From positions 1 to 34,987 of the IMG/VR virus record IMGVR_UViG_3300040736_000022: a stretch of DNA of 34,987 bases, one strand, 5' to 3'. Both the position numbers and the translations under genes were made by a program. Of this stretch, positions 4,699 through 19,901 are shown one piece after another. Within the stretch, counting starts at the first letter, position 1. Each line of letters begins with the position of its first letter. Origin of the DNA: a virus (taxonomy: Duplodnaviria > Caudoviricetes). The notes beneath the pieces were generated by a model. The model was not told the origin of the DNA, did not search any database, and worked only from the letters and a program-made list of their open reading frames with translations.

Positions 4699-5682
4699 TT
4701 ACTTTTCCAATCCGAGCATATCCGCCACAGTCTGCCAGGTATTATCCTGCCGGCCCTGGATGGTATGAAGATATATTTGTGTGGTGGAGAGTGAGCTGTG
4801 ATCCAAAAAATCTCGAATTTTTTCCGGCGAATCACCCGCCTCACGGCGCAGAAGCGCTGCTGTATGCCTCAGCGAGTGCACCCGCAAAATCCGATCATTC
4901 AGCCCTGCCTTCCGGGCATAGTATTTGAGACCGCTCCGGACCGTCCCCGCGCCAACCGGCTGCTCGAGGATATTTCCGCGAAAATCGTAGGAGTGAAACA
5001 CATAGCCCGATGAGCGGTTATCCTCGCAGATCGAATAATCCTGGATCGCCTCCATCACGATTTCCGGCAGTTCCTGGACCATTCCCGCTTTCCCCTTGCC
5101 TGTCCAGCGGAACACCAGCCCCGCCGGACGCAGCTCGATATCCTCATAGCGCAGCGTGCGCCATTCCGAGTTTCGCCGCCCGGTCAGCAGGTAGCCCAAA
5201 AACAGCGCATAATCCCGCCGGCCGATCGCGTTTTCAGCTCTGGGGATGGCTCGCAGAAATGCCCTCGCCCCGGCCACATCCATCACGGTGGCCTTGTTGT
5301 ATGGGTTTACCTTGGGCCGCGCCGCCCCGATCACAGGATTATTCGGACAGAGCGGGATCTCCTGACCATCCGGCTGGGTCAGCGTGTAATCCTCTGAGCA
5401 GAATTTGTAGAACGAGCTTACCCCTGACAACCTGGCCACGATGGTGGTATCCGCCACGTTGCGTTTTAAATGCGCGGTCCATCTGGCTATATCGATCCGC
5501 CGTATCTGCCACGGAGCCGCGCCGCAGAATGCCAGCAGCTGGTGAACGGATTGTTCATACAGCCGCCTCGTGTTGGGCGAATCTTGCAATTCCAACCATA
5601 GGCGATGCGCATCATTCCAGAGATCCGCATTCTGCGGATCGCCGCCGTCCGCCACCAGAGGATCAGCAGCAGATAGTGTCAT
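4699..5682 (-). CDS. Tyrosine recombinase (XerC/D-like), in the early lytic operon
   Basis: SAM-like N domain; RDYAL..LTGRRNSE, GKGK, HSLRHT, HSSLSTTQIY catalytic motifs. Confidence 0.92.
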   Translation of the reverse strand: MTLSAADPLVADGGDPQNADLWNDAHRLWLELQDSPNTRRLYEQSVHQLLAFCGAAPWQIRRIDIARWTAHLKRNVADTTIVARLSGVSSFYKFCSEDYTLTQPDGQEIPLCPNNPVIGAARPKVNPYNKATVMDVAGARAFLRAIPRAENAIGRRDYALFLGYLLTGRRNSEWRTLRYEDIELRPAGLVFRWTGKGKAGMVQELPEIVMEAIQDYSICEDNRSSGYVFHSYDFRGNILEQPVGAGTVRSGLKYYARKAGLNDRILRVHSLRHTAALLRREAGDSPEKIRDFLDHSSLSTTQIYLHTIQGRQDNTWQTVADMLGLEK

Positions 5683-5917
5683 GGTTTTGGCAGATCTTGC
5701 TCAGGAACGCATTGGTGACCGCCAGGTCGAACAGCCCGATGTTGGCCAGCGCGGGGATGGTCCGCTGGATCTGCTCGCCGTCATTAAATTCGACGGTCAG
5801 ATCGCCATTTTTTTCCATCCGGGCTGAGCGCAAATTTCGGATCGAGAGCTTGATCCCCCACACGTTCACAAACGGTCCGACCCCAGGGTCGGTTGCATGT
5901 ATGGTCTCTCCGATCAC
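5663..5917 (-). CDS. Hypothetical protein
   Basis: ORF with GAGGAGG RBS, overlapping the recombinase start. Confidence 0.6.
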   Translation of the reverse strand: MIGETIHATDPGVGPFVNVWGIKLSIRNLRSARMEKNGDLTVEFNDGEQIQRTIPALANIGLFDLAVTNAFLSKICQNHDTICC

Positions 5918-5941
5918 AGCACGCCTCCTCGTTCTCGTTGG

Positions 5942-6031
5942 TTATGAAAAAATAGCGGCTAAAATGCCGGCGATTACCGCAAATCCCGCCAGCAGCCAGT
6001 TGGATAAATCCGCTTTAATCGCCTTGAGCAT
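5942..6031 (-). CDS. Small single-TM peptide (29 aa)
   Basis: MLKAIKADLSNWLLAGFAVIAGILAAIFS, directly after the cro stop, GGAGG RBS. Confidence 0.55.
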   Translation of the reverse strand: MLKAIKADLSNWLLAGFAVIAGILAAIFS

Positions 6032-6307
6032 TTATCCCTCCGTTGTTGGTTCGGGCGCAGCCAGCAAAACCGCCAGGCAATCCTCGGCCCACTGCCGCGC
6101 CCAGATCTCTGCGAATGGGCTGCGGGTGATCCGGTTCAGCATGAGCGGGTCAGGGGTATGCTGCCCTTTTGCCCACTGGAAAACACTCTGCCGGCTGATA
6201 TTTTCATCCGCGCCGAGTCCGCTTGCAAATGCTTGCAATGTGCGGGTGACGAGATAATGGCGCGTGATTTTTGCTGTTTTTATCCTTTGTTCTGGGGTCG
6301 TTGGCAT
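6032..6307 (-). CDS. Cro-like HTH regulator
   Basis: TLQAFASGLG..ISRQSVFQWAKG..P HTH; first gene divergent from the repressor. Confidence 0.75.
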   Translation of the reverse strand: MPTTPEQRIKTAKITRHYLVTRTLQAFASGLGADENISRQSVFQWAKGQHTPDPLMLNRITRSPFAEIWARQWAEDCLAVLLAAPEPTTEG

Positions 6308-6351
6308 ATTTGGCTCATTACAAAGATCGTGATAGATAGCTTTGTACTGAG

Positions 6352-6380
6352 ATTATAGCAATCTGCTATAAATTTGTCAA
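6352..6380 (-). promoter_or_regulatory. Early lytic promoter, perfect sigma70/sigmaA consensus, overlapped by a palindromic operator
   Basis: Minus strand TTGACA-17 nt-TATAAT; palindrome TATAGCA-ATC-TGCTATA at 6354-6370. Confidence 0.85.
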
Positions 6381-6415
6381 GTGTATTTAACAAATTGCTT
6401 AAAATTGGTATAGTT

Positions 6416-6850
6416 ATGTTTGTGAAGAGCCCACTCTCAGATTGGTTCGAGAAAGCACTTGTTAAATATCAATATGAAATTGGAGAACGGGTTTCTCTCG
6501 ATGAATTTGCCGAATATTTAGGAATCAGCCAGGGCTATCTCAGCCAGCTGATGAATGGAGCCAGAAAAGGTATGGGCAGAAACACGGCCATCGTGATCTG
6601 CCAGAAATTGAACGATTACTCACTGCTGGATATCCTGGGCTACACCCGCCCTCAGCCGGAAGAGATCCCGATCCCGTTCTCCTCGCTGCCCCCTGAGCTG
6701 CAGTCATTGCTCCGTTCAGCGCTGCTCGAGATCGAGCAGACCCTCAGGACCCGCTCGATCCAGCCCGATTCACCCGAAGGATTGGAAATATCAATATCTA
6801 TAATGAGAAAGTATGGATTTAGTTTCAATTCGATCATTAGCGATGAGTAA
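6416..6850 (+). CDS. CI-like XRE-family repressor without a peptidase S24 domain (start may be GTG 6422)
   Basis: SLDEFAEYLGISQGYLSQLMNG HTH; divergent from cro; short helical C terminus. Confidence 0.85.
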   Translation: MFVKSPLSDWFEKALVKYQYEIGERVSLDEFAEYLGISQGYLSQLMNGARKGMGRNTAIVICQKLNDYSLLDILGYTRPQPEEIPIPFSSLPPELQSLLRSALLEIEQTLRTRSIQPDSPEGLEISISIMRKYGFSFNSIISDE

Positions 6851-6876
6851 CCCTCTATGGTGAACAGCGCCTTCAC
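6652..6876 (-). CDS. Possible SOS-controlled antisense ORF (candidate antirepressor) overlapping the repressor 3' end
   Basis: GTG start with GGAAAGGGG RBS directly downstream of a promoter and LexA-like box; no recognisable protein motif. Confidence 0.35.
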   Translation of the reverse strand: MKALFTIEGYSSLMIELKLNPYFLIIDIDISNPSGESGWIERVLRVCSISSSAERSNDCSSGGSEENGIGISSG

Positions 6877-6891
6877 AAATTACCCCTTTCC

Positions 6892-6937
6892 TAGAATACC
6901 TGTTCTATATCATACAGCGACCCAAGCCGATTTTCAA
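6892..6937 (-). promoter_or_regulatory. Promoter with a LexA-type (GAAC-N4-GTTC-like) box over the start site
   Basis: Minus strand TTGAAA-17 nt-TATGAT then TAGAAC-AGGT-ATTCTA (6892-6907). Confidence 0.7.
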
Positions 6938-7177
6938 TATGCCCGGCTGCAAAACGACCTGCAGTTTTCTGCAATATCCCCTGAGATCATTATATTTTTT
7001 TTGGGGGGGGTACAGTTATCAATTTTGTAATTTCAGCTGTTGAACCTTAACAAATTCAGGCTAATTTTCCTCTCCAAAAATCTAACCGCCGTGCTCACGG
7101 CTATACTCAACCACCGTGCACATGGAATGGTCAAAATACATGGCTATGTGGTCAGAGGTTCGATTTTTGGCTCGGAT

Positions 7178-7224
7178 GGTTCGGGTCCGCGAGGTCGGCG
7201 GTTCAAATCCGCCCGCCCCGACCA
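7178..7224 (+). other. Putative attP core: 3' half of tRNA-Pro(CGG)
   Basis: GG-TTCGGGT-CC anticodon loop, GGCGG-TTCAAAT-CCGCC T-arm, CGCCCCG-ACCA end; 5' half absent; about 200 bp upstream of the integrase. Confidence 0.88.
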
Positions 7225-7229
7225 GCAAG

Positions 7230-7278
7230 ACCGGCGTTCACACGGATATGCCTAAACAGCGACCATGTGAACGCCGGT
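7230..7278. repeat. 13-bp inverted repeat just downstream of the tRNA fragment
   Basis: ACCGGCGTTCACA ... TGTGAACGCCGGT. Confidence 0.7.
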
Positions 7279-7429
7279 AACCCGAAAAACAACCGCCGAC
7301 CTCATAGATTTTTCACCACAGACCGCACGGATTATTGGCCAGCAACAGAGGGAATTACTGGTTTTTCGTTATCCGCCGCCGTAAATTGTATTATCGTCAC
7401 CACTATTTCAGGAACCGGAGTACACACGG

Positions 7430-8359
7430 ATGAAACGTTCAGTCGCGTTATCTCAAATTATCGAGGGCTATCTCATGCATGCCAGCGCCCGCCATCTCAG
7501 CGAAAATACCATCATAGACTATTCGAATACGTATCGAAAATTACAGCAGTTTTTCAAATCGGATCCTGATTTCGCCAGCATCACCCACCTCCAGATTGAG
7601 CAATTCCTATCCAACCAGAACGGGATTTCGAACAAGACGCTGCTCAACTATCATACCGGCCTCTCCGCGCTTTGGACCTGGGCGGTCGCTGAGGGCCTGG
7701 CGCCTGAGCATATACTCCGTCGGGTGATCAAGCCCAAACCGGAGCAGCGCGATATCATCCCGTTCACCGAGCAGGATATCCACGCCATAATCGGCGCGAT
7801 CGTCAAATCCAGACCCTACACCCGCCCAGGCAAGCGGGAGTCTGTCCATTCCCTGCCCCATCCCGAGCGCACCCATGCCATGCTCCTGCTGCTCATCGAT
7901 ACAGGCATCCGCGTCAGCGAGCTCTGCAATCTGACCATTCGCGACTGCGACATTAAAAATCAGCGCATTGTGGTCATGGGCAAGGGCGCTAAAGAGAGGC
8001 AGATACCAATCTCCGCCCGCACCGCTCAGGTCATCTGGAGATACCTGACCACCCGGCCCAGCGCCCGCCTGGACGAGCCCCTTCTCACGACGGACCACGG
8101 CCGCCAGCTCGAGCGTTATAACGTGCTCCACATCCTCGAGCGCATAGGCCAGCGCTCCGGCGTGACCAATTGCCATCCTCATCGATTCCGCCATACATTT
8201 TCAATTCTTTACCTTCGTAATGGTGGAGATGCGTTCACATTGCAGAGGATCCTCGGACACTCCACTCTCACGATGGTCAACCGCTATCTCCACATCGCCC
8301 AGACCGATTTAGCCCAGGCCCACCGAAAGGCATCTCCGGTGGATAATCTCAGATTGTGA
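7430..8359 (+). CDS. int: Tyrosine integrase/recombinase next to attP
   Basis: DTGIRVSEL, GKGAKER, HPHRFRHTF, LGHSTLTMVNRY motifs. Confidence 0.93.
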   Translation: MKRSVALSQIIEGYLMHASARHLSENTIIDYSNTYRKLQQFFKSDPDFASITHLQIEQFLSNQNGISNKTLLNYHTGLSALWTWAVAEGLAPEHILRRVIKPKPEQRDIIPFTEQDIHAIIGAIVKSRPYTRPGKRESVHSLPHPERTHAMLLLLIDTGIRVSELCNLTIRDCDIKNQRIVVMGKGAKERQIPISARTAQVIWRYLTTRPSARLDEPLLTTDHGRQLERYNVLHILERIGQRSGVTNCHPHRFRHTFSILYLRNGGDAFTLQRILGHSTLTMVNRYLHIAQTDLAQAHRKASPVDNLRL

Positions 8360-8362
8360 TTT

Positions 8363-8397
8363 CCCCTCTCCTCTTAGGGGAGGGGCCAGGGGAGGGG
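8363..8397. repeat. REP-like GC-rich palindrome between int and the GT gene
   Basis: CCCCTCTCCT-CTT-AGGGGAGGGG followed by CCAGGGGAGGGG. Confidence 0.5.
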
Positions 8398-8400
8398 TCA

Positions 8401-9267
8401 ATGCTCCGGTCATCTCTACAAACGATTCGCTGGTCATTCATCGCCAGAATCGCTCTACAGGTAGCGCTCCTCTCACTCGGCCTTATTCTGGTCATAACGC
8501 TATTCATTCCATCATTGATTCGTCTGTCTGAATTCGGCGCTGATTGGGTAAAAATATTTCGGCCCGCCGTTCTCAGCCGCGACCCGTATTCCAATCCTAA
8601 TTTTTATAATCCACCCTGGGTAATAATCCTCCTCGCGCCTATCGCTCTGCTGCCATCAGGATGGGATATGGCAGCGATGATCCTGATATCCATCGTTGCC
8701 TGGATCATCGCCATGCGCCGGCTCGGCGCATCTCTAATCGTGATCCTGTTAATGTTCATGACCCCGCAATTATGGTGGAGCATCGTTTATGGCAACCTGG
8801 ATTTTTTAGTTGTCCTCGGAATAATCCTTCCGTCACCTCTCGGGCTGTTCTTCGTGTTATCCAAGCCGCAGGCCGGCGCCGGGATCGCCATCTACTGGCT
8901 GATCCTGGCTCACCGTCAGGGCGGGTGGCGCAATCTGCTGCTAACCATCTCCCCTATTATTACCGTCTCACTCCTGTTTTGCATCCCGTTTGGCCCCTGG
9001 CCAATGGAGCTGTTCGATGCGGTGACAAATGCAGCATCGAACATTTCGATTTTTCCGTATCTCGCCGGCGCTGGTCTGATCCTGCTGATCCGATCGATCA
9101 AAAACAGGCAGCCTGGGCTGGCGATCATCTCCGGTCCGTTGATATCCCCATATATCGGTATTCAATCAATTTCAGTCGCGGTCCTTGGCCTGCTGCCCTC
9201 CCAAACGGACGCTATCCTGGTAATCCTCTCGCTCTGGGCCGCCTGGCTGATGAGAGGGATATTGTAA
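8401..9267 (+). CDS. Polytopic membrane protein, GT-C fold / GT87 (DUF2029)-like glycosyltransferase
   Basis: DPYSNPNFYNPPW..LLAP, GNLD and SKPQ motifs plus many TM helices; exact start uncertain. Confidence 0.7.
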   Translation: MLRSSLQTIRWSFIARIALQVALLSLGLILVITLFIPSLIRLSEFGADWVKIFRPAVLSRDPYSNPNFYNPPWVIILLAPIALLPSGWDMAAMILISIVAWIIAMRRLGASLIVILLMFMTPQLWWSIVYGNLDFLVVLGIILPSPLGLFFVLSKPQAGAGIAIYWLILAHRQGGWRNLLLTISPIITVSLLFCIPFGPWPMELFDAVTNAASNISIFPYLAGAGLILLIRSIKNRQPGLAIISGPLISPYIGIQSISVAVLGLLPSQTDAILVILSLWAAWLMRGIL

Positions 9268-15917: not shown

Positions 15918-18211
15918 TTTGCCCTCCGCGCCTCCTGCAGGACCAGCCGCGCCAGCCGGCGCATGTCCATATCCCGCGTCAGCGTGGCATGGATGTTGAT
16001 AGTAACCGGCGCCATTTGTTCCGCGCTGGCCCCGGCGCCCGCCGCGGCCACTGTCAGCCCGCCCGCGGAGATCCCTGCCGTCATCCCGCTGATCGACCGG
16101 CCGATATCCCTCTCGATCTGGCGGAATGAATCCGCGAATCCTACGCCCAGCCCCAATGCCATGTTTTGGCCCATATCAAAAAATACTTGTGAGCGGGAGT
16201 GAATACCTAATAATTTCTTGATAGCATCGATAACCCCGCCGAAAAAGCCGAAAATCTGATCCACCAGCCAGTCGGCGCTGTTGGAGATACCCTCCCAGAT
16301 ACCCAGCACGATATTTTTCCCGACTTCGAGCAGTTTGCTGGCCAGATTGACAATCCCTGTCGCCAGCGCGGTGATGATGTCCCCGGCCGCCTCGCCAAGT
16401 TGTGGCAGCATCTCTCCAATTCCAGTGATCAGCGCCAGCACCAGCTCCACCGCCGCCTCCCCGATCATCGGCAGCATCTCGATAATCGCGTCGATCAGCG
16501 CCGTGATCAGCTCCGGCACCGCCTCGATCAGCGTCGGGATGGCCGTGATCAGCCCCTGCACCAGCGCCAGGATGATCTGCAGCGCCGCGTCCAGCAGCAG
16601 CGGCAGGTTTTCGATCAGTGTCTGAATAATTTTAGGAATAATTTCGATTATCGCCGGAATCAATTGCGGCAGCGCCTGCGCGATCCCCAGCGCCAGGGTG
16701 ATGATCAGTTTCAGCCCCGCGTCCAGCAGCATCGGCAGCTGCCCTAATACTCCCTTGACCAACGCCATCAGCAGCTGGATGCCCGCCGTGATCAGCATGG
16801 GCAGGTTACGCAGAATAAACTGCACGATCGACGTGATGATCGACAGCACCGCTGGGATCAGCGTTGGCAGGTTAACCAAAATGGCGTTGATGATCCCCTG
16901 CAGAATCCCCAGCCCGGCGTCCATAATCTCCGGCGCCTTGGCCGCGACATCCCCGACAATTTTGCCCAGAAGCCCGCCGATCCCCTCGGCCATTTTGCCC
17001 AGGTCCCCGTCAGCGCCTTTCACGATATCCGTCAATTCTCCCAGATACGATTTGAGCCCGCCGACCGCTGACCCCAGGAGCGGTAGCAGCCCCACCCCCA
17101 ACATATCTTTTAAATTCTGGAACTCGGCCTTGAGTTGGGCGACCCCCTCTGCTGCATTGGCGTTTTCCAAATCGACCCCCTGCAGAATTCCCTCGCCGCC
17201 CTCCATAACGGCGTTGAGCAGCGCGATCTGCTGCTCCTCCGCGCTCAGCTCATCGACGGTTTTGCCGATCGATTTCGCGTACGCCTCATTCGCCTCGCCA
17301 AGTTTCAACTGGATGCCCAGATTATCAATGATCATCGGCGAGGATCGTTTAATACCGGTCACCAGGCTCTCGAATAGATAATCCACGTCCTGCCCGGTTT
17401 TTCGGGCAGATGCCCTTGCGATCTCGAGCAGCCGCGGCAGCGACTGGCCAAATTGTTCTCCGAACTCCTCGCCCGCGCCCGTCAGCGCGAAATTAGCTCG
17501 GGTCATCAACTCAAAATCGCTGATCGTCCCCCCGGAGGCCTTCCGCAACTCGCTGAGCATTTCTTCTGAGGATTTCCCTACCCGGCTAGCCGTCTCCTCG
17601 AACCCTTCCGCGATTGCAGGCAGGCTAGCCGCGCTCAGCGCCAGATCAGCCGCCAGTTTCGCCGCGCCAACTGCGGCGCCGACCGCAGCTGCCCCCACCG
17701 CCGCGATCGCCTTTGCTCCGGCTTTCATCACCGTGCCCAGCCCGCCGGCGACTGATTTTAATTTTTCCAACTTGCCGCTGGCCTGGTGGGTTTTATCCCC
17801 CATCTCCTTCATCTCGTTGCCGGCCTGATCGGCTTCTTTGCCCATCTCATCCAGCGCCCGCTCGGACTGATTGAGCTCAGTCTGCATTTTGCCGAGCGTC
17901 TCAGTCTCTTTGTTGATCTTGATCTGCAGCTCGGCCAGCTCTTTCGCGCTCGCCTTTCCGCTGGACGCCAGTTCGCTGTAAACTGACTGTAACCCATCCA
18001 CCTTTTGTTTCTGCAGGTCGATGGTCTGAGACAGGCTCTTAATCCGTTTTTCCAGCCCTTCCTCCGACTTACCCCAATCCCCGATTGCCGCAGCCGACGC
18101 CTTGAACCCGGATTCGATCACCCGGATATCCCGGTTGAGCTCGGCAATGCCGGCTTTATAATTGGTCGTGTCCAGCTGGACGCGCTGCGAGAGAGGCGGC
18201 AGGTCGGACAT
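15914..18211 (-). CDS. Tail tape measure protein
   Basis: 765 aa, N-terminal coiled coil, 11-residue amphipathic LPxL repeats, LGIHS motif. Confidence 0.93.
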   Translation of the reverse strand: MSDLPPLSQRVQLDTTNYKAGIAELNRDIRVIESGFKASAAAIGDWGKSEEGLEKRIKSLSQTIDLQKQKVDGLQSVYSELASSGKASAKELAELQIKINKETETLGKMQTELNQSERALDEMGKEADQAGNEMKEMGDKTHQASGKLEKLKSVAGGLGTVMKAGAKAIAAVGAAAVGAAVGAAKLAADLALSAASLPAIAEGFEETASRVGKSSEEMLSELRKASGGTISDFELMTRANFALTGAGEEFGEQFGQSLPRLLEIARASARKTGQDVDYLFESLVTGIKRSSPMIIDNLGIQLKLGEANEAYAKSIGKTVDELSAEEQQIALLNAVMEGGEGILQGVDLENANAAEGVAQLKAEFQNLKDMLGVGLLPLLGSAVGGLKSYLGELTDIVKGADGDLGKMAEGIGGLLGKIVGDVAAKAPEIMDAGLGILQGIINAILVNLPTLIPAVLSIITSIVQFILRNLPMLITAGIQLLMALVKGVLGQLPMLLDAGLKLIITLALGIAQALPQLIPAIIEIIPKIIQTLIENLPLLLDAALQIILALVQGLITAIPTLIEAVPELITALIDAIIEMLPMIGEAAVELVLALITGIGEMLPQLGEAAGDIITALATGIVNLASKLLEVGKNIVLGIWEGISNSADWLVDQIFGFFGGVIDAIKKLLGIHSRSQVFFDMGQNMALGLGVGFADSFRQIERDIGRSISGMTAGISAGGLTVAAAGAGASAEQMAPVTINIHATLTRDMDMRRLARLVLQEARRAK

Positions 18212-18912
18212 TACATCACCTCGACCAGCTCGCTATCTACCAGATTTCCGATCACAACCGCCTCCGTCTCGATGACCGGCATTTCGAGTGGTGCCGGCTT
18301 CATAAATATCCGCTTGACCGTCGTAACCGGCAGCGGTGGGTATTTCTCGCAGGTCTCCATCTCCACCTGCTGCCAGCCAAGTTTTTCGAAAATTTCCTGA
18401 TAATTCCGATTCCAGGCGTGCTCCGAGACCGCCCGCAGCGATTCACCCTCGCAGGTGACGATTAATTTTCGTGCCTTCTGCGCGATGCGCTCGAAGAGCT
18501 GCTCGTGCTCGGGCGGGATGTGCATCAGCAGCCCCACGGTGTAGATCACGTCGAAATCATCGACCTCATCGATCAGCTCCTCGGCCGGCCCGATCAGCAC
18601 CCGTATCCGTTTATACGCCGGAAAATGCGCGCGCCCAATCTCCACGGTTTTCGGGCTGAGCTCAATCCCGGTCAGATTTTTAAATCCAGCTTTTTTCAGC
18701 GCGGTCAGATTCCGCCCGGTTCCGCAGCCAATTTCCAGAATGGTATCGGATTTATCCGCGTGGAATCTCATCGTCTCGACGACCATCCGCGAGATATTTT
18801 CTAGATCGATGTAAAACTCCGGCCGGCAGGTGCGGTACCGTTTTTCCGGCGCCCCGCTCCGCGCAGGGTCCAGCCAGAATTGAATCCGGTTGAATTTATA
18901 GTTGTATTTCAT
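18211..18912 (-). CDS. Class I SAM-dependent methyltransferase (small-molecule/glycan type)
   Basis: ILEIGCGTGRN motif I, GIELS, FDVIYTVGLLMHIPP. Confidence 0.88.
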   Translation of the reverse strand: MKYNYKFNRIQFWLDPARSGAPEKRYRTCRPEFYIDLENISRMVVETMRFHADKSDTILEIGCGTGRNLTALKKAGFKNLTGIELSPKTVEIGRAHFPAYKRIRVLIGPAEELIDEVDDFDVIYTVGLLMHIPPEHEQLFERIAQKARKLIVTCEGESLRAVSEHAWNRNYQEIFEKLGWQQVEMETCEKYPPLPVTTVKRIFMKPAPLEMPVIETEAVVIGNLVDSELVEVM

Positions 18913-19901
18913 AGGTAACTCTCCAGTTTCTCCACAAAATGGGCGGGGTCGAACGGCTCGCCGATGAAACGCTCCCGCCAGACGGCCGCCTGTGGGTCGC
19001 CCTGGCAGGCTCGCTGGATCACATCGGCCGGATCGCCAGCCAGAATGTCCAGCGGATAGGCCATGATGTCGGCGTATTTCTCCCAGCTCTGGGCATACAC
19101 CGTCTGGCCGTGGCTGACTGTGTGCGGCGGCAGGTCCTCGCGCATCATCAGCGTGGGTTTTCCCCTGGCCACTGCCAGGTAGGCAAACGTCTGGTGGCCA
19201 ATCACCAGATCAGATGCGTCGATCTCGCGGATGGTCAGGTCCGGCCGGCCCATCACGTAGGTCACGCCGGCCACCCGCTGCAGCCCGTTGCGCTCCAGCG
19301 CCTGGATGTGCCGCACGGTCAGTTTCGCTCCGGTTGCCCGGCAGTACTCCAATAGAATTTTGAACGTCTGTTGATTGGATTCTTTATCCTCTTTACAGAT
19401 CCACCCGCTGGCCGAGGGATGGATTGCTCCGAAGAGGACATTTTTCGGCTTCTCGACCGGCTGAAATGGAATGAGCCCGCAGTAGGTCCAGCCGGTTACC
19501 TCGAGCGGCAGCGAATAGCCGTAGCGCCGCATCACCTCCACATGTCCGGCGGCCGGCACGAAATTGCATCTGGTATGCGGCCAGACCTCCCATATCCCAT
19601 CCCAGATAATCTGCGGCCGCGCCGCGTGCGGGTAGAGAAAAACCGGCGTTCCGCGGGCGTGGTAGCGCTCGAGCTGCGCTGTTCTCCGCCCGCCGTCCAT
19701 ATCATACAAAACGAATTTGATCCGCGTCCGCTCAGTCACCGATGGCCTGTAGCCGGATTTTCTCAGCGCGTCCACGTAAGCATTTTCTTTGCCCTGATGC
19801 GGCCGGACTATAAAGAATTTTTGCGGATGCGTGTTATAGCCACGATGCCGATGGATCGTCGCAGTAGACCGGGTAGGTTTTCTTCGTTGGATGGGTGGCA
19901 T
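18909..19901 (-). CDS. GT-B-fold glycosyltransferase-like protein
   Basis: Two Rossmann-like halves; PVFLYPHA, EVTGW and SDLVIGHQTFAYLAVARGKPTL resemble GT-B polysaccharide-synthesis enzymes. Confidence 0.55.
   Translation of the reverse strand: MPPIQRRKPTRSTATIHRHRGYNTHPQKFFIVRPHQGKENAYVDALRKSGYRPSVTERTRIKFVLYDMDGGRRTAQLERYHARGTPVFLYPHAARPQIIWDGIWEVWPHTRCNFVPAAGHVEVMRRYGYSLPLEVTGWTYCGLIPFQPVEKPKNVLFGAIHPSASGWICKEDKESNQQTFKILLEYCRATGAKLTVRHIQALERNGLQRVAGVTYVMGRPDLTIREIDASDLVIGHQTFAYLAVARGKPTLMMREDLPPHTVSHGQTVYAQSWEKYADIMAYPLDILAGDPADVIQRACQGDPQAAVWRERFIGEPFDPAHFVEKLESYL

Follow-up and report, generated by a model that had tools for sequence, protein, structure and literature searches.

RecA-stimulated self-cleavage of LexA frees SOS boxes, and in Chloroflexota the LexA box is GAAC-N4-GTTC, as checked on two genomes only. 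The same motif is the LexA box of Firmicutes and Actinobacteria according to the available part of PMC3323433. In phi106, the portion of the report at hand describes a 29-aa ORF, AimX, that lies behind a LexA site and overlaps the repressor gene aimC by 30 bp; AimX binds the C-terminal oligomerisation domain of AimC and blocks DNA binding, and it acts as a protein, a start-to-stop change having abolished the response (bioRxiv 10.1101/2025.11.23.689978). Other AimX proteins are given there as 29-80 aa long and "sometimes" overlapping the repressor gene. GfoA/GfhA/GftA of Salmonella Gifsy phages and the corresponding proteins of coliphages 186 and N15 are LexA-repressed antirepressors of non-cleaved repressors, the Gifsy genes lying outside the immunity region (PMC3121763, as far as its accessible text goes). 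In lambda, the oop promoter, which carries a LexA site, reads against the 3' end of a gene that regulates lysogeny and yields a short non-coding RNA against the activator cII (available text of PMC5869508). The accessible part of PMC7067206 held no closer system, and a literature search that covered few subscription journals retrieved no Chloroflexota report of an element like the one described below, no paper on the Chloroflexota LexA motif and no paper on prophage induction in Anaerolineae.

The window analyzed here comprises an entire virus record of 34,987 bases (IMGVR_UViG_3300040736_000022), flanked by direct terminal repeats (CheckV estimate, 56%). Since it encodes terminase, portal, head, tail, lysis, and replication genes, it was taken as a temperate tailed phage. 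Of the named genomes that have its repressor, a Bellilinea MAG (93% over residues 27-68) and HGW-Chloroflexi-8 come closest, which points to an Anaerolineae bacterium as the likely host; the public sequencing runs that match best stem from digester, wastewater, and sludge metagenomes. No RNA run was among the matching runs listed, and a single RNA-labelled run contained a piece of a relative, in contigs that carry no information on strand or transcript start. The switch region contains the following features (window coordinates):

6032-6307, minus strand: divergent cro-like gene, 91 aa (HTH_3 at no better than E 0.08)
6352-6380, minus strand: perfect TTGACA-17-TATAAT promoter of the cro-like gene and early operon (promoter scan)
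6355-6369, both strands: inverted repeat ATAGCA-ATC-TGCTAT, 15 bp, within the early promoter
6387-6414, plus strand: promoter-like TTAACA-16-TATAGT of the repressor gene (promoter scan)
6416-6850, plus strand: repressor-like gene, 144 aa from ATG (Pfam, PHROGs, AlphaFold2)
6652-6876, minus strand: 74-aa overprinted ORF, GTG start at 6876 and end at 6652, candidate antirepressor
6823-6873, minus strand: predicted N-terminal beta-hairpin of that ORF, residues 2-7 and 10-18 (AlphaFold2, composition)
6883-6891 (read 6891-6883), minus strand: Shine-Dalgarno-like GGAAAGGGG, 6 nt ahead of the GTG
6892-6907 (read 6907-6892), minus-strand reading, palindromic: LexA-type box TAGAAC-AGGT-ATTCTA, over the predicted start site
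6909-6914 (read 6914-6909), minus strand: -10 hexamer TATGAT, with a 17-nt spacer to the -35 (promoter scan)
6932-6937 (read 6937-6932), minus strand: -35 hexamer TTGAAA of the antisense promoter (promoter scan)
7178-7222, plus strand: 3' half of a tRNA gene, attP core (public-run contigs)
7430-8359, plus strand: tyrosine integrase (Pfam and PHROGs)

As in AimX-AimC-AimL, in the available description of that system, the locus combines a short HTH repressor without an autocleavage domain (AimC being RecA-insensitive), a divergent cro-like gene, and a small convergent ORF that lies behind a LexA site and overlaps the 3' end of the repressor gene. Unlike extended arbitrium, it contains no aimR or aimP, attP and the integrase lie upstream of the small ORF, and LexA is seemingly the sole input. 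The overlap amounts to 199 nt here vs 30 bp in phi106, longer overlaps being possible in other AimX, and a beta-hairpin is predicted here whereas AimX is described in the same partial source as mostly helical, in a host phylum other than that of Bacillus. The fold match to AimC (9iaq; Z 5.7, rmsd 3.2, 66 aligned residues) covered the HTH only, and a PDB sequence search gave no match to AimC. Judged by its sequence, the locus is not a member of extended arbitrium, the homology seen being confined to the HTH. Its layout has already been shown experimentally for phi106 AimX/AimC, which lowers its novelty; new are the lack of an arbitrium input, the lack of a known protein family, and an overlap that spans the whole of the putative target domain. 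With the Gifsy, 186, and N15 systems the locus shares a non-cleaved type of repressor and a small-protein gene under a LexA-type operator, here a sequence match; unlike the Gifsy genes, placed outside the immunity region in the accessible text, the ORF overlaps the repressor, and unlike those antirepressors none of the 33 members of the small-protein family described below matched any Pfam family. Like lambda oop, the locus has a LexA-site promoter directed against the 3' end of a gene that regulates lysogeny, but the target here is the repressor and the reading frame is under selection, and the conserved starts, the avoidance of stops, and the lack of an own minus-strand terminator-like site set the element apart from an OOP-type RNA, as far as the available source describes it.

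The repressor possesses an XRE/HTH_3-type N-domain (about residues 1-76), the HTH being the only match obtained from Pfam and PHROGs. Its AlphaFold2 monomer model (25 rows, mean pLDDT 85.8) consisted of a five-helix N-domain, a linker, two helices (93-112 and 120-132) and a tail to which no strand was given. The family is large, with 237 representatives at E<=1e-10, mostly of 130-155 aa. The C-domain had no match among cultured phages (50,697 records); Foldseek returned nothing at E<=0.001, the VIA fold search returned HTH matches only and barely probed the C-domain, and the best ESM Atlas match to the C-domain (0.82) is a lead at most. A repressor of about 145 aa lacking the S24 autocleavage domain had been noted in the first-pass annotation, in agreement with the 144 aa found here and with the family search and structure model, by which no Peptidase S24 domain was found in the repressor or in the genome, unlike the C-terminal domain of lambda CI. 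Unlike the case of ImmA/IrrE-cleaved repressors, no phage-encoded M78 metallopeptidase (PF06114) was present (0/1 record, phage genome only). AimR (PF22871) was likewise absent (0/1 record) in a search that detected the B. subtilis positive control, no ANT family was found in the phage genome by family search, and no named antirepressor was found among 16 ORFs (Pfam) or 13 + 40 ORFs (PHROGs). The phage thus appears, from its sequence, to encode no other recognisable means of inactivating its repressor.

The antisense promoter TTGAAA-17-TATGAT, the box, the ribosome-binding site, and the 74-codon GTG ORF read in the first-pass annotation were recovered base for base. The box lies one base past the -10 and has one mismatch to TAGAAC-N4-GTTCTA. 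The ORF overlaps that of the repressor by the whole C-domain, its 199 nt agreeing with an earlier estimate of about 200 nt; third codon positions of the two genes coincide, and the antisense frame is stop-poor by nature. One-mismatch GAAC-N4-GTTC sites number 14 in the window vs 9.8 expected (14 being reached in 9/100 shuffles), and a single one-mismatch copy of the 14-mer AGAAC-N4-GTTCT is present, at this site, vs 0.44 expected (39/100 shuffles). Synonymous resampling of this gene leaves the antisense frame open about every second time (P 0.49), and the per-locus P values ranged from 0.16 to 0.68. With a box count near chance and an open frame at P 0.49, the single window proves little. On the minus strand no terminator-like site was found between 6959 and 5220, and RNA folding of 6800-6905, at the transcript start, gave a z of 0.28. 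The 74-aa ORF was not in the protein collection searched. A plus-strand ORF at 6857-7030 (57 codons) was rejected, being in a different frame in the close relative L001 and not conserved.

For the comparison with relatives, 77 distinct genes with the same C-domain were kept from all fetched loci, with five duplicates skipped and rows with <60 nt downstream dropped (at least one, L092); L012 and L016, which have replaced 3' ends, were excluded, and dereplication at 80% reduced the remaining 75 rows to 62. Boxes were accepted with up to two mismatches to TAGAAC-N4-GTTCTA within 140 nt past the repressor stop. Such a box was found just past the stop in 30/62 relatives, compared with 0.7% in shuffles. 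The same antisense frame was open over 56-77 codons in 29/30 box rows (L149 has a box and a closed frame) and over at least 56 codons in 8/32 box-less rows; these eight include L020, L104, and L146, which carry the ORF with a degenerate box or, as in L020, without one. Box, in-frame start, and open frame occurred together in 24 of the 30, vs an in-frame start and open frame in three of the 32 rows without a box. A small divergent ORF accompanied the repressor in 28/30 box rows vs 14/32 box-less rows; nine of the 30 divergent ORFs scanned matched a Pfam family at E<=0.01, eight of them HTH_3 or RHH_1, and these HTH and ribbon-helix-helix matches came from element-bearing loci only. Since 29 of the 30 box rows cluster in a single half of the tree, comprising 34 rows (support 88/77, not starred; seven label changes), the rows are not independent and p-values overstate; the element may be of single origin. 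Most box-less rows fall in one 25-row clade. A class-wide genome search gave matches in 3/401 genomes with a narrow alignment and in 31/401, 82/401, and 7/137 genomes with the wide one. A pattern scan of viral-contig DNA was discarded, its three matches being L001 and two chance matches within a long ORF. Conservation of this degree is far above chance, indicating that the element is real.

The box also matches the presumed host regulon. In two Chloroflexota genomes that carry relatives (G001 and G002), AGAAC-N4-GTTCG lies between the -35 and the -10 upstream of lexA, and TTGAAC-N4-GTACTA lies upstream of recA. Phage boxes use the half-sites of these host boxes, the GTAC variant included, and by this match the antisense promoter would be covered by an operator of the host LexA type. 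When promoters overlapping the box were scored on both strands in 32 box-bearing loci, the minus strand scored higher in 27 and lower in three, and promoters of at least 9/12 were present on the minus strand in 19 loci and on the plus strand in four. The best script calls, of which a few look misassigned by eye, placed the box in the spacer in 23 loci and just 3' of the -10 in nine, the window included. The box-in-spacer geometry is identical to the layout of host lexA and recA.

Starts called without regard to frame (Shine-Dalgarno or leaderless) were obtained in 25/30 box rows, and 23 of these 25 are in the frame of the antisense ORF. They lie 8, 11, 17, 20, 23, 26, 29, 35, or 41 nt from the repressor stop, all of them in the non-coding stretch past it and outside the repressor coding sequence; L121, L128, L132, and L138 have a leaderless ATG 5-8 nt after the -10, and most others a Shine-Dalgarno sequence. 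Openness of the frame is mostly expected from the repressor sequence (22.9/30 expected open over 50 codons). Over the last 50 repressor codons of the box rows, antisense stops were found at none of 29 synonymous-choice sites vs 8.2 expected, and 28 box-less controls had them at 27/78 sites vs 23.4 expected. Over codons 15-45 the count was 0/18 vs 5.4 expected, and the avoidance ends near the linker. Because Shine-Dalgarno and leaderless starts share one frame at nine distances, a translated gene is favoured over antisense RNA alone, and the sequence pattern indicates that the element is a conserved translated overprinted gene and not just an antisense RNA. The first-pass annotation had suggested conservation of promoter, box, and antisense frame in related phages, with avoidance of stop codons, as a check, and this was borne out; it had left the choice between convergent or antisense transcription and an overprinted antirepressor, a proposal that is supported and in which the one-frame starts favour the protein over transcription alone.

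The 33 members of the small-protein family share M-K-hydrophobic-x-F, followed by a D/P/G-rich turn and a second alternating segment; their Pro lies opposite the conserved Gly134 of the repressor, and a Ser-rich tail comes after. In the set used for composition, in which seven starts were chosen by hand, the free N-terminus has Lys at position 2 in 14/23 members, is 41% hydrophobic, and contains 3% Ser vs 26% in the tail. AlphaFold2 (12 rows) predicted the N-terminal 20 residues as a beta-hairpin, with pLDDT of 79 and 77 for the first two ten-residue blocks, in a protein with a mean pLDDT of 59.7 and a pTM of 0.25, two thirds of which is a Ser-rich low-confidence tail (pLDDT 45-56). Strand 2 of the hairpin is encoded opposite repressor residues 137-144 (register from sequence), and L065, L104, and L148 are without most of strand 1. 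A PDB sequence search with the antisense family gave nothing meaningful, and gene callers had predicted two members elsewhere (P0020 and P0021). The small proteins match no known family and would represent a new one; the repressor C-domain likewise belongs to no known family.

We consider it probable that the small protein is a LexA-gated antirepressor, which would be induced by damage, bind the repressor C-domain, and release the lytic promoter. In the lysogen, LexA would silence the minus-strand promoter at 6909-6937; DNA damage and cleavage of LexA would then allow the small protein to be made. Its N-terminal beta-hairpin is predicted to dock on the C-domain of the repressor, the probable site being the tail with its alternating hydrophobic residues, a placement drawn from the residue pattern only, since the monomer model has no strand there. 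Docking would block repressor oligomerisation, so that the inverted repeat at 6355-6369, the candidate repressor operator, would be vacated and the cro-side operon would fire; convergent transcription may add an effect in cis. A predicted complex of repressor residues 84-144 and small-protein residues 1-36 scored 0.35 (best of three controls, 0.02; no interface given), which is in a range where, absent a prior, wrong predictions outnumber right ones: 116/157 solved complexes and 2/215 mismatched pairs reached the mark, but just 18/157 solved complexes and both mismatches did so at scores of 0.60 or under. The runs agreed in at least 79% of contacts, with a partner pLDDT of at least 60, and the cut at residue 36 may have lost a relevant part, because stop avoidance reaches about residue 55. 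The model weakly supports binding of the small protein to the repressor C-domain. A more specific proposal, which we regard as doubtful, is that strand 2 of the hairpin, the antisense of the terminal segment of the repressor, pairs with that segment directly as beta-strands and replaces a repressor dimer contact. If so, inhibitor and target surface would share roughly 30 base pairs, each mutation there would alter both partners at once, and the loci would form a self-matching switch family across Anaerolineae phages, of which a chromosomal clade would have lost the overprinted gene.

The effector might instead be transcription or the RNA, which seems unlikely to us: damage-induced convergent transcription would collide or pair with the repressor message, the ORF being a helper, and the transcript may continue into the same-strand cro-side operon, with a translating ribosome carrying RNA polymerase through the repressor gene. 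A block at the RNA level leaves existing repressor protein in place, which counts against this explanation. The conserved minus-facing promoter and the stretch free of terminator-like sites between 6959 and 5220 would fit it, and the stop avoidance across the low-complexity tail suits a need for translation over fold; the free N-terminus, however, keeps an amphipathic beta pattern that would be superfluous for mere translation. Lambda oop is a precedent, having a LexA site and giving an RNA complementary to the 3' end of cII (PMC5869508, available part), but the role of OOP after SOS induction is minor, if any, according to the accessible text of PMC2327240, and in the portion of the arbitrium report at hand, phi106 and phiW23 antisense RNA without the AimX start codon had no measurable effect (bioRxiv 10.1101/2025.11.23.689978).

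That a real, SOS-induced small protein has another target we find quite improbable; examples would be the cro-like protein, an SOS protein of the host, or the integrase, for which it would serve as directionality factor. The weak prediction of repressor binding (0.35), the lack of a family assignment for all 33 members, and the position of attP and the integrase beside the promoter in the window (250-500 nt away) and in L001 leave room for it, but wherever the gene occurs it accompanies the repressor C-domain, whereas its downstream neighbour varies freely (HIRAN-like, membrane, or other accessory genes), and the phage encodes no other recognisable route of repressor inactivation. It is very improbable that the palindromic box governs a plus-strand downstream gene (accessory or integrase) and that the antisense ORF simply mirrors the repressor codons, for although the box is symmetric, the frame naturally stop-poor, and a plus-strand gene present 90-150 nt past the stop in many relatives, the promoter faces the repressor in 27/32 loci, the starts share one frame (23/25), and the window has no plus-strand gene within 500 nt bar the non-conserved 57-codon ORF.

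A LexA-gated antirepressor overprinted on the repressor gene would offer a concrete and testable way in which temperate Anaerolineae phages are induced, their hosts being abundant bacteria of sludge and sediment, and would extend the AimX/AimC design beyond arbitrium and Bacillus. It would add a small-protein family without prior annotation and a repressor C-domain for which no family is defined. With the inhibitor gene written within the coding sequence of its product's likely target domain, the two would stay together in recombination, and the locus is a clean example from nature in which simultaneous selection on both strands can be studied. The element is mostly unannotated in relatives from sludge-type Chloroflexota; gene callers usually drop such ORFs, so the opposite strand is worth checking in non-cleavable phage repressors without a visible inducer.

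Several further observations were made in the relatives. A plus-strand gene with an N-terminus that we take to be HIRAN-like recurs right behind the element in L015, L037, L059, and L090. Tandem repressor paralogs are present in L059 (G709:C7:85044-85903) and also in G891; the downstream copy has the box and the antisense ORF, and the upstream copy retains a relic of the antisense frame that has neither start nor box. One clade lacks the divergent partner, the box, and the antisense ORF (L061, L096-L099, L101-L103, L107, L109, L113, L114, L122, L124, L139-L145, and L152-L160); its members often lie beside tRNA or housekeeping genes and are possibly a domesticated chromosomal regulator of Anaerolineae.

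In the window, the -10 of the repressor promoter (TATAGT) ends 7 nt ahead of an in-frame GTG at 6422; L001 is arranged alike, several repressor homologs begin at the equivalent position, and the repressor mRNA may be, and likely is, leaderless from this GTG. Two public runs have an 8-base deletion at 6344, between the cro-like and repressor genes and a little beyond the early promoter. Public-run contigs match 7178-7222 without mismatch and then continue into the 5' half of the tRNA, presumably Pro-like from its pattern; ARAGORN called no tRNA, and Rfam over 5600-7500 gave a single match, at chance level, at the tRNA half. L001 has a related integrase and carries in the same place (about 4735-4773) a different tRNA half (CAT anticodon), the two phages thus differing by an attachment-site switch with conserved flanks. 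An 18-nt repeat, in four to five imperfect copies around the attP core (7085-7431) and kept in L001, is a candidate for integrase arm sites. A second tyrosine recombinase (4699-5682, minus strand) lies inside the early operon, two genes past the cro-like gene; L001 has it too, and tblastn places it close to the repressor in L037, L105, L059, and L138. A GT87-like membrane protein is encoded directly after the integrase (8356-9267, plus strand), and a methyltransferase gene and a 330-aa ORF without assignment lie between the tail chaperone and tape measure genes (18211-19901, minus strand).
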